Positions 2,712 through 10,974 are shown, numbered from the stretch's first letter. The stretch is 20,000 bases of DNA from Candidatus Heimdallarchaeota archaeon (GCA_030638685.1 DAOWED010000063.1:1-20000); one strand, 5' to 3'. Notes: generated by a model from the sequence alone, not told the origin. Made by a program: numbers and translations.

Positions 2712-2958
2712 GTGAGATGTATAAAATTAATCAGTTAACAAATTTTCGATTGAGAAATAAGTATCAGAAAAAAACTAAAAGAAAAGAGAAAAACTAAAAA
2801 AAATGTTTAATTAGGAGGAAAAAAAGAAGAGAATATAACAGTTCTGAAAGGAACAAACGGAAGTCACTCCATTCAACAACTTCATAAAGGAAGTGAATAG
2901 TGATAAGATTGTGTGTCCATGATGGACGAGTGTTTGCTAAAGATGCGTTCTGAGCAAC

Positions 2959-3076
2959 GGTAACACAGAAGATAAGCCCAATTGCGTAAAGCACATTACT
3001 GATCTATTGGTCGGGAAAGGTTTCAAGTTGGCATTCGTGCCGATCATAGCGTTGGGGTAACTCCTGTACCCATTCG
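2959..3076 (+). rRNA. Putative circularly permuted 5S rRNA gene
   Basis: The 5S elements occur in permuted order. First comes the 3' half: AACACAGAAGATAAGCCCAAT..GCG (2962-2986), then the domain gamma hairpin CTGATC-TATT-GGTCGG (2999-3014) with GGGAAA. Next is helix I, TTGGCA-TTCG-TGCCGA (3028-3043), then the 5' half TCATAGCGTTGGGGTAACTCCTGTACCCATTCG (3044-3076). Helix II (GC+GTTGGG 3049-3056 with CCCAAT+GC 2977-2985, T2983 bulged) and helix III (CTGT 3064-3067 with ACAG 2965-2968) pair correctly. Exact mature ends are unknown. Confidence 0.82.
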
Positions 3077-3086
3077 AAATCCTGTC

Positions 3087-3126
3087 ATGGTTTCACGGTG
3101 TGGAAACCGTTTTTCCAATTTTTTTT
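3087..3126 (+). terminator. Hairpin followed by T-tracts downstream of the permuted 5S gene
   Basis: ATGGTTTC..GAAACCGT stem (3087-3094 with 3103-3110), then TTTTCCAATTTTTTTT. Confidence 0.55.
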
Positions 3127-3236
3127 TCTATCTTAGTTTAACCTTTGATTTTATTTTTTATTATCTTCAATCTTTTCTCTTCTTTCGTTTAACCATCATT
3201 TGTTAACTCTTCATTGATTTTAACCTGCTCAGAAAT

Positions 3237-3256
3237 AATATTATACGTATAATATT
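3237..3256. repeat. 20-bp perfect palindrome
   Basis: AATATTATACGTATAATATT. Confidence 0.8.
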
Positions 3257-3315
3257 CATTTTAATGAAATAATCAACCCCTCTAAAAAACCCCCTAGTTG
3301 CAGTCTAAATCTAGA

Positions 3316-3334
3316 TAACTCCTGTACCCATTCG
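3316..3334 (+). repeat. Second copy of a 19-nt segment of the 5S loop B/helix III/loop C region
   Basis: TAACTCCTGTACCCATTCG is identical to 3058-3076; here it is followed by CTTTTTTT. Confidence 0.85.
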
Positions 3335-3432
3335 CTTTTTTTCTTGGCAACTGGCAACTTATCTTATTGCTTTCTTTCTAATTAAAATGGTTGAAGAGCA
3401 CTCTGCTCCTCTTTCTTTACTTTGTATATCTT

Positions 3433-4815
3433 TCAATGCTTTTTTATGAATTTTATTACTTCTTCTGTCGTTCCTGTTATTTCTTCTGATTCTTTTAGAT
3501 TTCTTATGGTATATTGCTCATTCTTTGCATCCTTCTCTCCTACTAGTATTGCATTCTCTATACCTAATCTATCCAACTTATCGAATCTTGTCCCTAGCCT
3601 TCCAAACTTCGTTTCCAGTTCTATTGTTATTCCTTCTTTTCTCAGTTCATCAGCTAACTTGAACGCTCTTTCCAGCATTTTTTCATTGAGTGGTAATATT
3701 CCACACTTTGCTCTTGGCTCTTTTTCTCGTGGTTCCTGCTCTACTAAACAATCTATTACTCTGTTTAACCCTATCGCAAATCCTGCTGCTGGTACTTCTT
3801 GTCCTCCTAATAACCCTACAAGATTATCATACCTTCCTCCTCCTGCCAATGATCCTCCTGAATAATCTGCTTCTACTTCAAAAACTATCCCTGTGTAATA
3901 ATCCAGCCCTCTTACTATTGAAGTATCGAATTCTACTGTTTTTTCCATCCCCATCTTTTTGCATATCTCGAATACTTCTTTTAGTTTTTTCAAGCTTTCT
4001 TTCCCTAGTTCTGAAGTTACCATTTTTGCTAATGTTTCTAATCTTTCCTCTGAATCTCCTTTTATTGTCATTATATCTAGCAGTTCTTCGAATATTTCTT
4101 TCGCTTTTGTTTCGTTTATTTCTTCCTTGGTCTCACTAGATAATTTCTGATAACTTTCATCGATGTAACTATTTACCTCTTCTATGGTCATCTTCTCTGT
4201 TTTATCTAGTGCTCTTAAGAAGATTAATCTTATCTCTTCTTTTTCTGGTACTCCTAAATAGCTTAATAGTGCATTTATTAGTCCTCTATCACTCACTTTT
4301 ATTCTGAAATCTTTTATTCCTGTTTCTTTGAAGAAGTCGTTTAGTACCCATATTACTTCAGCATCAGCTAGTGCTCCTTCTGGACCTATAAGTTCTATTC
4401 CAAATTGCCAGAATTCTCTTAGCCTTGTTCTTTTAGTATCTTCATCTCTCCACATTGGTCCTACATAATAGAACTTTACTGGTTTGACAAATTTCAGGTA
4501 TTGGCTTGCTACTATTCTTGATGACCCTATTGTTGCATCAAACCTTAGTGCATATTTGAAATCATCAAGTTCAGCTGGTTCACTTGTTAGTTTTCTTATC
4601 TGAGTATTTTCTATTACAGAGAATAATCCCTCAGCTAACTCTTCTGATGATTTTACTGAAAGTATTTTTTTGAATTCCATTAATGGTGGAAAAACAGGTT
4701 CATATCCATGTAATTCTGCGACTCTTGAGCTTAGGTGCATCATTTTTTGTAGTAATGAAGCTTTAATTTCTATTATATCCGTTGTTCCTTTTGGAGTATC
4801 TAAATCGAGTCGCAT
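3433..4815 (-). CDS. hisS: Histidine--tRNA ligase
   Basis: 460 aa; class II motif 2-like region (YYVGPMWRDEDTKRTRLREFWQFGIELIG) and HisRS-specific GLDYYTGIVFE, GGGRYDNL and GFAIGLNR. Confidence 0.93.
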   Translation of the reverse strand: MRLDLDTPKGTTDIIEIKASLLQKMMHLSSRVAELHGYEPVFPPLMEFKKILSVKSSEELAEGLFSVIENTQIRKLTSEPAELDDFKYALRFDATIGSSRIVASQYLKFVKPVKFYYVGPMWRDEDTKRTRLREFWQFGIELIGPEGALADAEVIWVLNDFFKETGIKDFRIKVSDRGLINALLSYLGVPEKEEIRLIFLRALDKTEKMTIEEVNSYIDESYQKLSSETKEEINETKAKEIFEELLDIMTIKGDSEERLETLAKMVTSELGKESLKKLKEVFEICKKMGMEKTVEFDTSIVRGLDYYTGIVFEVEADYSGGSLAGGGRYDNLVGLLGGQEVPAAGFAIGLNRVIDCLVEQEPREKEPRAKCGILPLNEKMLERAFKLADELRKEGITIELETKFGRLGTRFDKLDRLGIENAILVGEKDAKNEQYTIRNLKESEEITGTTEEVIKFIKKH

Positions 4816-9239: not shown

Positions 9240-10790
9240 TCATAGAAATTCAATCGGTTTTGGAAGCTTATCGACATATTTTAGGAATGATTCTGGCCAT
9301 TTGGAAAGATCAGTTCCTTTTTGAGCAATAAAAGCAGTTAAGAAACGTTCGAAAGAACCACCTCCGCATCCAGACCAAAGTTGATCTCCAGATTGAGACT
9401 TGATATTGAATGCTTTAGGATATTTGGAGCCTATAACAGAGATATTCTGTATTTCTAACCAGTCACTATCTTTTCTGTTACCGCGATAAGGCATGTAAGC
9501 TTCAAAGTCAATTGTGCCTACTGTGGGAGCTTTAGTATCCTCTTTTTCTTCTTTGACATCACCTGAGTGGGCTTGCCACCAAGGAGTTACGTATGAACCT
9601 CTTACTTCAAGATCTAAGATGTCGTTAAAAATAAATTTCAGCTTATCACGAACTTGAGCTCCCAGTTCAATAACTTGTTCTGGGAAACCAACAAAAAGAG
9701 TCTCAATTCGGTGAAGTTCATCTACTCTCTCAAATCCATAAGCAGAGCCTGACTCATATCTGTAAGTGGGTCCGGACCAGTCAAAGATTTTTATAGGAAA
9801 AGTAGTATCAGATATTGTTTCACCTTTTAACCACCAATAAAAAGGTGGACATTGAGCAAAACTTAATCCGCCAAGAGGAGGGCGAACTTTACTAGCAATC
9901 AATTCTCGAGGAATTTCCTTTGTAATTTTAACATGATCAGCTACTTCTTCCCAGAACTTGGGGTCAGCTGTTTGAGGTGCAACTACAAAATAAGGTTCAA
10001 AACCACCTTGAAATATTCCTTCAGAATGACCTGATCGTTTCCAGACGTCCCAAGGAACAAGTTTTGGAATAATCATTTGGTCGAATCCTAATGGCTTGTA
10101 TAAGTGATCTACCATGATATTCTTGATTGCTTCAGTAAGGGTGGTAAGGGTTGGAGTAATAATCCATTGATTTCTATGAGCTGCTCTTTTGAGCCAGTTA
10201 GCTTTAACCATTTGCTCAGTTGGATCAGAGGAACAAACTTCTTGTTTTTGTGGAGAACTAAACAATATTCTGTGGTGTTCTGCTTTTGAACCATAACGTT
10301 GCTGGTGAATTTTATCGTTTACTAATCGTATTATTCTATCAATAGCTCCTTTTTCAAGTAAATCCTCGGGGATTGAAGGATCAATAATTATTGTTGCTTC
10401 TTTTTCGTTGAAAAGTATTTCTTGGGTAAAGGGAAGCTTGAAAGGAGTATTTGTCGGGAAATCAAGAGAGATAACTATTTTATATTCCAAAATCTTAAAT
10501 CCACGAAGACCAACCCGGAAACGTTCTCCTAAGGTGGTTTTAAAGTATTTACGAAGACGAAGAATGGCATGATGAGGAGCAACTCTAGTTTCTCCGGCAG
10601 TAAATTGGAATTCAAGTGAAGAGCCCGAAATATCCCAGCTTGAAATCTTTGTCGAAGTTTCTTGATCTACTTCACTTACTCCTTTGTGAAGGACAGAAGT
10701 AGTCTGGGCGATTATTTCGCTTAATTCATCCTTGCGATCTAACGGAAAGTCAGAACTTAACTGATAAATCATCTTCATTTGAAAATGCAT
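9240..10790 (-). CDS. serS: Serine--tRNA ligase, methanogen-type (type 2)
   Basis: LGGLSFAQCPPFYWW, SGPTYRYESGSAYGFERVDELHRIETLFVG and LWSGCGGGSFERFLTAFIAQKG, with Cys/Glu/Cys candidate zinc ligands as in the rare archaeal SerRS. Confidence 0.85.
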   Translation of the reverse strand: MHFQMKMIYQLSSDFPLDRKDELSEIIAQTTSVLHKGVSEVDQETSTKISSWDISGSSLEFQFTAGETRVAPHHAILRLRKYFKTTLGERFRVGLRGFKILEYKIVISLDFPTNTPFKLPFTQEILFNEKEATIIIDPSIPEDLLEKGAIDRIIRLVNDKIHQQRYGSKAEHHRILFSSPQKQEVCSSDPTEQMVKANWLKRAAHRNQWIITPTLTTLTEAIKNIMVDHLYKPLGFDQMIIPKLVPWDVWKRSGHSEGIFQGGFEPYFVVAPQTADPKFWEEVADHVKITKEIPRELIASKVRPPLGGLSFAQCPPFYWWLKGETISDTTFPIKIFDWSGPTYRYESGSAYGFERVDELHRIETLFVGFPEQVIELGAQVRDKLKFIFNDILDLEVRGSYVTPWWQAHSGDVKEEKEDTKAPTVGTIDFEAYMPYRGNRKDSDWLEIQNISVIGSKYPKAFNIKSQSGDQLWSGCGGGSFERFLTAFIAQKGTDLSKWPESFLKYVDKLPKPIEFL

Positions 10791-10845: not shown

Positions 10846-10974
10846 AGCCGACACCGAGAATTGAACCCGGGTCAATGGAAGATTGTCTGAGAAAAACTTC
10901 TTTCTCGGTCCACAATCCACTATTTTTGGCTTCCAAGTATTCCTACTAGGAATTTACCATTAAACTATGTCGGC
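10846..10974 (-). tRNA. tRNA-His(GTG) with two 29-nt introns
   Basis: Exons are 10974-10954, 10924-10910 and 10880-10846; introns are 10953-10925 and 10909-10881. The spliced product is GCCGACA TA GTTT AATGGTA AAAT A GTGGA TTGTGGT TCCAT TGAC CCGGG TTCAATT CTCGG TGTCGGC T, a full cloverleaf. CCA is encoded at 10845-10843. Confidence 0.85.

Follow-up and report, generated by a model that had tools for sequence, protein, structure and literature searches.

The gene for 5S rRNA is among the most conserved and most easily recognised of cellular genes, and the pairing of the two RNA termini in helix I is textbook knowledge. A natural departure from this order has been described in the mitochondria of brown algae and other stramenopiles (mtPerm-5S; Valach et al. 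2014), where both the gene and its product as seen by RNA-seq are permuted: a 5' (or 3') hairpin replaces helix I and the ends lie at the alpha/gamma junction, giving an open three-way junction (PMC4267664). An engineered form exists in Escherichia coli, which is viable with a circularly permuted 5S (cp5S) as its sole 5S, the native ends being linked by a 4-nt connector and the molecule being tethered into the 23S rRNA after opening in loop C (CH84) or loop D (DH42); loop C adjoins helix 84 (H84) of the 23S rRNA (Huang et al. 2020, PMC7283268). Among other RNAs, the permuted tRNA genes of Cyanidioschyzon merolae and some Archaea place the 3' part upstream of the 5' part, and their precursors pair leader with trailer, carry a bulge-helix-bulge (BHB) motif, and are circularised and reopened to a normal tRNA. 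The 23S rRNA of Thermococcales and Methanosarcina is encoded colinearly and becomes permuted at the RNA level by BHB-dependent circularisation, with processing stems formed by its flanks (PMC7758197, PMC12918454).

Here we describe a locus in a 20-kb window (the whole stretch of 20,000 nucleotides that was analysed) from a Candidatus Heimdallarchaeota archaeon. Positions 2962–3076 on the plus strand are, with a probability that we put at roughly 0.93, a genuine and selected circularly permuted 5S rRNA gene. The rotated order is written in the DNA itself: a UUCG loop fuses the usual 5S ends, and loop C is where the chain opens. Full-text literature searches found no permuted 5S reported for archaeal, bacterial or nuclear genomes, and the sole natural precedent is the different rearrangement in stramenopile mitochondria. 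The first-pass annotation of this DNA had rightly named that precedent, which is of another permutation type (PMC4267664).

Compared with canonical archaeal 5S (RF00001), the locus retains helices I–V, loop A CAUAGCG, loop C CCCAU.CGAA, the GAAGAUAAGCC motif and the loop E-like UACUG/GGGAA, and its identity with haloarchaeal 5S is ~80–85% over the beta domain; it differs in its rotated order, in its helix I, which a UUCG loop closes into a hairpin, and in its chain break, which falls on the 3' side of loop C. It resembles mtPerm-5S in being a natural permuted 5S whose helix I is no longer made by two termini, but here the junction is closed, the ends lie in loop C, and the genome is cellular rather than organellar. 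CH84 has the same topology, with a 4-nt link (here UUCG, 3034–3037) and an opening in loop C after model position ~44, although the cp5S lies covalently within 23S helix 84, whereas the present gene is free-standing with its own leader, trailer and terminator. With permuted tRNA genes it shares the upstream position of the 3' part and leader–trailer pairing, but it has neither a canonical BHB nor a removable linker in helix I. As in the Thermococcales and Methanosarcina 23S rRNAs, an archaeal rRNA of non-textbook mature topology is accompanied by processing stems formed from its flanks; the present permutation, in contrast, is in the DNA.

Detection and structure of the rotated gene

Linear models pass over the locus. 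Rfam 15, which includes mtPerm-5S, returned neither 5S nor any other rRNA from the whole 20 kb at gathering thresholds, a tRNA being the sole match, and a scan of 2800–3450 at E ≤ 10 matched no family, 5S-type or other. The locus thus lies below the RF00001 gathering threshold of 38 bits, and its closed junction and loop C break likewise set it outside mtPerm-5S. When the 5' half of the 5S was searched alone, RF00001 was the only family matched, with 3041–3078 aligned to model positions 6–44 as a 3'-truncated match (14.6 bits, E = 0.29); the 3' half alone gave no match in Rfam when a truncated alignment was sought. RF00001 fails here because the gene is permuted, and the expectation of the first-pass annotation that standard linear searches could miss the gene was borne out, the 14.6 bits being recovered only from the isolated 5' half.

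The sequence was rotated, so that the helix I 5' strand through CCCATTCG was joined to AACACAG through the helix I 3' strand, with the junction at query positions 39/40. A BLASTN search of 72,556 plasmid records with this query matched 51 records, and the alignments run contiguously across the artificial junction. The best junction-spanning matches covered query positions 8–79 at 79.5% identity (Halomontanus, E = 3e-7) and 8–66 at 85% (Natrialba, E = 2e-8), and all 11 matches that were checked with Rfam are true 5S genes (66–104 bits).

The model was then rotated instead of the sequence. A permuted-order covariance model (R1) was built from 10 of these genuine 5S genes (7 haloarchaeal, 3 bacterial; 79–104 bits each with Rfam) that were cut after G42 of loop C, with helix I trimmed to 7 bp and capped with GAAA, purposely not UUCG. 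Its alignment (A2) was annotated with the Rfam consensus structure moved to the rotated order, and no window sequence was used. With filters off, R1 aligned to 2962–3076 (+) over model positions 1–121 at 67.8 bits (E ~2e-15), the runner-up in the 20 kb scoring 7.5 bits, which puts the match well outside what chance would give. A sequence-only model from the same alignment (R2) gave 37.4 bits at the locus, so that about 30 bits are owed to base pairing, including the pairs that bridge the two ends of the gene. It should be noted that in a local-mode control R1 also gave 44–68 bits to single halves of the normal-order training genes, as separate matches ending at the cut point; the proof of the permuted order accordingly lies in one contiguous alignment over the full length and not in the score.

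By homology and fold the locus is a 5S, with helices I–V and the motifs of loops A, C and E, whereas at gene level its topology is not canonical, helix I being closed by UUCG and the two halves of loop C lying at opposite ends. The cyclic order, all on the plus strand, begins with AAC (2962–2964) from the 3' side of loop C, followed by the helix III 3' strand ACAG.AG, GAUAAG and the helix II 3' strand CCCAA..GC. This stretch (2965–2985), recognised by its pair counts and including the conserved GAAGAUAAGCC motif, comes after loop C in a normal gene. The whole helix V/loop E/helix IV domain follows, then the helix I 3' strand GUUGGCA, UUCG and the helix I 5' strand UGCCGAU, and the order ends with loop A CAUAGCG, the helix II 5' strand GC.UUGGG, the helix III 5' strand CU.CUGU and the 5' side of loop C, ACCCAUUCGAAA. 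Loop A and the 5' strands of helices II and III occupy 3045–3067, within the 3'-truncated RF00001 alignment to model positions 6–44, and the loop C portion that forms the 3' tail occupies 3068–3079, at RF00001 positions 33–44, with CCCATTCGAAAT invariant in relatives.

Helix I (3027–3044) consists of 7 bp including two G-U pairs, 3027–3033 with 3038–3044, and its UUCG tetraloop (3034–3037) occupies the site of the 5' and 3' ends in a normal 5S. The gamma domain (2987–3025), assigned from pair counts and from alignment to the 5S consensus, contains helix V (2987–2992 with 3020–3025), helix IV (2999–3004 with 3009–3014), loop D UAUU and a loop E-like AUUACUG/GGGAAA. Helix III joins 2965–2968 and 2970–2971 to 3061–3062 and 3064–3067, and helix II joins 2977–2981 and 2984–2985 to 3049–3050 and 3052–3056. 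Minimum free energy (MFE) folding of the stretch yields the 5S three-way junction, in which helix I forms a capped hairpin and helices II and III pair the gene's first third with its last.

The strings on which the permuted reading had been based are in place, with GGTAACACAGAAGATAAGCCCAATTGCG starting at 2959, ATTACTGATC-TATT-GGTCGGGAAA and TTGGCA-TTCG-TGCCGA following, and TCATAGCGTTGGGGTAACTCCTGTACCCATTCG ending at 3076. The cross-pairings claimed for helices II and III are also present, with T2982/T2983 and G3051 as the unpaired bases where a bulged T2983 had been named. The proposal that the new ends lie in loop C holds, and can be refined: the break is on the 3' side of loop C, at Rfam positions ~44/45, and the conserved unit is slightly wider than 2959–3076, extending over 2959–3080 (GGU...GAAAU).

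Host, gene neighbourhood and conservation in relatives

The proteins flanking the locus are archaeal and include an archaeal-type AdoMet synthetase, Rad50, HisRS and a SerRS with a methanogen-type N-domain. The HisRS is identical to a protein of a Candidatus Heimdallarchaeota archaeon, and a relative at 90% is labelled Candidatus Kariarchaeaceae archaeon; the host is an AT-rich (~35% GC) Asgard archaeon of the Heimdall group (Kariarchaeaceae/Heimdallarchaeota). The permuted 5S stands free between two protein genes on the minus strand, a PPAT-like gene (2256–2711) and HisRS (3433–4815), and does not lie inside a 23S rRNA gene.

The identical locus was found in ENA, NCBI and Logan assemblies (L006–L008), and a near-identical relative (L010) comes from another JGI metagenome. 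The permuted 5S occurs between the PPAT-like gene and HisRS also in L010, in L013 (from ENA), in a locus carried by two JGI contigs (L011+L005; HisRS 85% identical), which overlap by 34 nt inside the gene, and in L004 (GCA_054388035.1; HisRS 90%), whose gene is cut at the contig end. R1 gave 69.6 bits for L010, 69.3 for L013, 60.7 for L011+L005 and 34.7 for the cut gene of L004. At the next-nearest HisRS locus (L025, 39% identity) no 5S adjoins. A DNA pattern for the permuted order found three chance matches in 185,579 species genomes, all bacterial and not 5S-like, and over metagenome contigs it found L010 and one chance match only.

An alignment (A3) of five sequences from three independent lineages shows the widest invariant or nearly invariant block to be 2959–3080 (+), from GGU to CCCAUUCGAAAU, with a mean column identity of 94%, and the mature RNA likely extends over about these positions, give or take a few nucleotides. 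The 33 pairs of the permuted structure are 98.1% paired in A3, against 25–46% when the partner is slid by 1–3 columns. Two-sided changes affect three pairs (none in the slid controls; mean of 1.8 in shuffled ones). Helix III is 100% paired and carries one A-U to U-A swap (ACAG/CUGU to ACUG/CAGU in L005); helix II is 97% paired with one A-U to G-C swap, helix IV 100% with one C-G/A-U swap, and helix V 93%. Wobble-preserving one-sided changes were also seen, and neither the seven pairs of helix I nor its UUCG varies in any of the five sequences. Two of the compensations link the gene's first third to its last, as the permuted fold specifically predicts.

With three lineages the covariation statistics are modest, and every change points in the same direction; the permuted arrangement is shown to be under purifying selection in a small Kariarchaeaceae/Heimdallarchaeota clade. 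Diverged relatives, assembled independently, keep both the rotated order and the TTCG cap, a point that the first-pass annotation had proposed to check. Each of its proposed checks that was run favoured its reading, and the reading as a permuted 5S is now supported by the full-length R1 match, the conserved order and the compensatory changes taken together.

Flanks, proposed maturation and possible forms of the RNA

In both the RF00001 and the R1 alignments the 3' tail carries loop C through G42-A43-A44, and the 5' end begins with A-A-C45 and runs into helix III, so that the gene carries AA twice, once at each end; CCCAUUCGAAAU and GCAACGGUAAC do not vary in any relative. Folding of the precursor predicts a pairing that the first-pass annotation had not described, in which the leader strand CCAUGAUGGACGAGUG (2917–2932, +) pairs with 3071–3090 (+), which comprises CAUUCG, a bulge of AAA (3077–3079) and UCCUGUCAUGG, in both MFE and centroid structures. 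The flanks are complementary and are predicted to bring the ends of the rRNA together in the manner of a leader–trailer helix. The duplex has an energy of -18.1 kcal/mol, reached by 7 of 1000 shuffled trailers, and for L011+L005, whose trailer UCCAUUUUGG differs but keeps the register, the corresponding values are -18.4 kcal/mol and 4 of 1000. The trailer of L004, UUCAUCAUUG, is near-complementary to the window-type leader, this being the leader with which it was compared and not L004's own. In the column alignment the trailers are offset by a 1-nt indel. Because the leader is almost invariant, the case for this helix is one of energy and trailer variation and not of two-sided covariation. The precursor fold as a whole has z = -1.95, with 6 of 200 shuffles equal or better.

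Within the same predicted fold, GGU (2959–2961) pairs with ACC (3068–3070) beside a bulged AAC, and between the two helices stands a leader hairpin (2934–2957, +; UUGCU/AGCAA and an inner 3 bp), with a single unpaired base on each side, U2933 and C2958, the latter immediately before G2959. Taken alone the leader hairpin is not significant (z = -0.74), and its sole variable base, 2952 (G/U/A), is unpaired; it is possibly a processing signal. Other structures were sought in the leader. A C/D-box sRNA was rejected by eye, CUGA (2951–2954) being CUUA or CUAA in relatives; there is no tRNA-like cloverleaf, only the hairpin; and a hairpin of the variable segments 2863–2878 and 2897–2910 was rejected because the pairing seen in the window is absent from both L011 and L013.

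Upstream, a TATA-like AGAAUAUAAC (2830–2839, +), read from the sequence and conserved in relatives, is a candidate promoter that would imply a leader of ~95 nt, and UUUGCUAAAG (2933–2942, +) is a weaker alternative. Downstream, a terminator-like element (3089–3128, +) consists of a hairpin GGUUUC/GAAACC (3089–3094 with 3103–3108) followed by T5 (3110–3114) and T9–10; relatives have other hairpins at this position, each followed by T-runs.

From these elements a maturation route can be proposed. The 5S would be transcribed as a precursor in which leader 2917–2932 pairs with the loop C tail and trailer at 3071–3090, while the short GGU/ACC helix lengthens helix III, and this clamp of the rRNA leader–trailer type would, while the RNA folds and is assembled, stand in for the loop C closure that is absent. 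Trimming of the flanks would follow, possibly at the 3-nt bulges AAC (2962–2964) and AAA (3077–3079). In Haloferax the 5' end of 5S is matured by tRNase Z at a tRNA-like structure (PMC3296008), and the leader hairpin possibly acts in the way of that upstream element. The product would be a 5S of ~115–120 nt with helix I capped and both ends close to 23S helix 84, on loop C's 3' side, and it would sit at the normal 5S site of the large subunit. We consider it probable, though well short of certain, that the gene yields a working 5S matured in this way from a clamped precursor to a linear RNA with its ends in loop C.

If it does, the design engineered in E. coli, opened in loop C and capped at helix I, already exists in nature, and a new route of 5S maturation is needed, with a leader–trailer clamp and new ends beside 23S H84. 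Genome annotation and quality calls of the MIMAG type, for which a 5S is required, would wrongly score these Asgard genomes as without one, and the lineage with most bearing on eukaryotic origins would carry an oddity at the level of its rRNA.

A different fate of the same precursor, which we regard as unlikely, is that a splicing-type endonuclease cuts the two 3-nt bulges and an RtcB-type ligase joins the ends, the mature RNA being a covalently closed circular 5S. BHB-style 2|1 cuts (AA|C at 2962–2964 and AA|A at 3077–3079) followed by ligation would give CCCAUUCGAA-CACAG, that is, a junction ...CAUUCGAA|CACAG, and the ligated sequence equals the canonical loop C ...CGAACAC(A/G)G of true 5S genes; the duplicated AA would, however, also be expected if the permutation originated by duplication. 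The leader does pair with loop C residues (CGAGUG/CAUUCG, GGU/ACC), as do the BHB-forming flanks of permuted tRNA precursors, and the same genome has a textbook BHB in its tRNA-His intron and a non-canonical D-loop intron. A correctly handed BHB scan cleanly recovered the tRNA-His anticodon intron, which lies in the same window (outer helix of 7 bp, UUGU/ACAA, bulges GGA/UCU, inner helix of 7 bp), but at the 5S ends it found nothing canonical, comparable or conserved: there is no helix-bulge-4 bp-bulge-helix, and the bulges lie ~9 bp plus a hairpin junction apart, not 4 bp. Circular 23S rRNAs are documented inside archaeal ribosomes, but in a review of pure-culture studies 5S is described as not processed via circular intermediates (PMC12918454).

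No 5S was predictable in closed Heimdallarchaeum genomes (PMC8813620), and 5S is reported for other Asgard lineages. The permuted gene fits the missing Heimdallarchaeum 5S and offers a testable reason for it. A bolder form of the argument, that the permuted gene is the lineage's only 5S with a circular ribosomal product, and/or that permuted 5S is general in Heimdallarchaeia and explains the missing Heimdallarchaeum gene, is doubtful in our view. A circular sole 5S would, if true, be the only known rRNA that both has a rotated gene and functions as a circle, and this among the archaea nearest to eukaryotes.

It is improbable that the locus is an extra, possibly non-ribosomal, 5S paralogue, with a canonical 5S elsewhere serving the ribosome. 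The genome was examined over 20 kb, and a conserved partial second copy at 3316–3334 (see below) indicates that 5S-derived fragments persist here. A linear 5S is, however, absent from the 20-kb window as it is from the Heimdallarchaeum predictions (PMC8813620), and every universally conserved 5S motif and each of the five helices is retained. Across lineages whose HisRS proteins are 85–90% identical, substitutions are compensatory or wobble-preserving, while the adjoining spacer decays fast, and an engineered cp5S opened in loop C works (PMC7283268).

Very improbable is a scheme in which the gene alone is permuted, its RNA being circularised and then reopened within the UUCG to give a normal linear 5S, as in the permuted tRNAs of Cyanidioschyzon. 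Permuted tRNA genes are indeed expressed via a circular intermediate (cited in PMC4267664), and the joined ends would rebuild a canonical loop C. We rate the scheme low because the helix I strands are joined by a bare, invariant UUCG on a 7-bp stem, without a spacer or a recognisable processing signal; the scan for a canonical BHB at the ends was negative, as above, and we know of no enzyme that opens a UUCG-type capped loop. That the local order is an assembly artefact can be dismissed because, even though the contigs of L004, L005 and L011 end inside the gene and assemblers evidently struggle there, the same order and cap recur in independent NCBI, ENA, Logan and JGI assemblies (L006, L007, L008, L010, L013) and in the diverged lineages L004 and L005+L011, with base changes that compensate across the supposed misjoin.

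A second copy of the 3' tail downstream

An unexplained element (3316–3358, +) follows the permuted 5S. It consists of a perfect 19-nt repeat of the 5S 3' tail, TAACTCCTGTACCCATTCG, at 3316–3334 (239 nt downstream), a T-run (3336–3342) and TGGCAACTGGCAAC (3345–3358). The 15-nt core CTCCTGTACCCATTC (3319–3333) is conserved at 15 of 15 positions in every lineage, even where the copy within the 5S is altered (L005, L004), and the second copy is always followed by a T-run and then, except in L004, by TGGCAACTGGCAAC. The spacer between the two copies ranges from ~72 to ~250 nt. Between the window and its closest relative this spacer is 73% identical with 26 gap columns, and in the same comparison the upstream intergenic region, the 5S, the trailer and the second copy are 98–100% identical.

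Several explanations for the second copy were set aside: a viral or integrative att site, because viral contigs contain no match to its 18-mer; a coding sequence for part of a small protein, because a minus-strand ORF of 33 aa is conserved over 13 codons only and lacks a start codon in L004; and a structured RNA, because neither strand gives a significant fold. The second copy may have been left behind by the tandem duplication from which the permutation arose. Its conservation argues for a function: it might bind a protein, serve as a recombination core, or act as an antisense element where the convergent HisRS transcript ends. As a separate observation, TGGCAACTGGCAAC resembles GAGCAACGGTAAC, which precedes the 5S.

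Contig ends and a mosaic locus in related genomes

For two closed Heimdallarchaeum genomes, it has been remarked that existing models predicted no 5S rRNA gene (PMC8813620). Three relatives of the locus studied here have contig ends inside the circularly permuted 5S rRNA gene: L004 (GCA_054388035.1; 3297-3403), L005 (4910-5027), and L011 (1-34), the latter two being contigs from one sample that share a 34-nt overlap within the gene. These breaks suggest an assembly graph branch, arising from strain variation or from a repeat. The more distant relative L013, whose whole locus spans 1455 nt, has a mosaic sequence: Its leader and gamma domain (helix V, loop E, and helix IV) are of the L011/L005 type, and helices II and III, the trailer, and the downstream region are of the window type, the last nearly exactly. 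Either recombination has occurred within the 5S gene, or the assembly is chimeric.

Conserved DNA flanking the 5S gene

The intergenic DNA 5' of the gene (2758-2958), which includes an A-rich tract with TTAATTAGGAGG, is identical at 200 of 201 positions to that of the near-identical relative L010, and is also well conserved in L011 and L013; its conservation is greater than a promoter alone would need. Downstream, a second copy of the 3' tail of the gene (exact 19-nt match) is followed by a T-run and then TGGCAACTGGCAAC (3316-3358, forward strand). The 15-nt core of this copy is the same in all lineages (the window, L010, L013, L005, and L004), whereas the spacer preceding it decays fast. Within this variable spacer lies a perfect 20-bp palindrome, AATATTATACGTATAATATT (3237-3256), which is kept in L010 and only partly, as ATAATATTCA, in L005. 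The palindrome resembles TATA and could drive a small transcript.

tRNA-His and a SerRS-like gene

A 129-nt tRNA-His(GUG) gene with two introns is encoded on the reverse strand (10846-10974; Rfam tRNA model, 42.9 bits). One intron of ~30 nt lies in the D-loop, and the other, of 29 nt, is located at 37/38 with a textbook bulge-helix-bulge. The unspliced gene was not detected by ARAGORN, which called a tRNA-His once the introns had been spliced out in silico. On the same strand lies a seryl-tRNA synthetase-like ORF (9240-10790). It carries PF18490, a tRNA-binding N-domain that is characteristic of SerRS of the methanogen type, here found within an Asgard genome.
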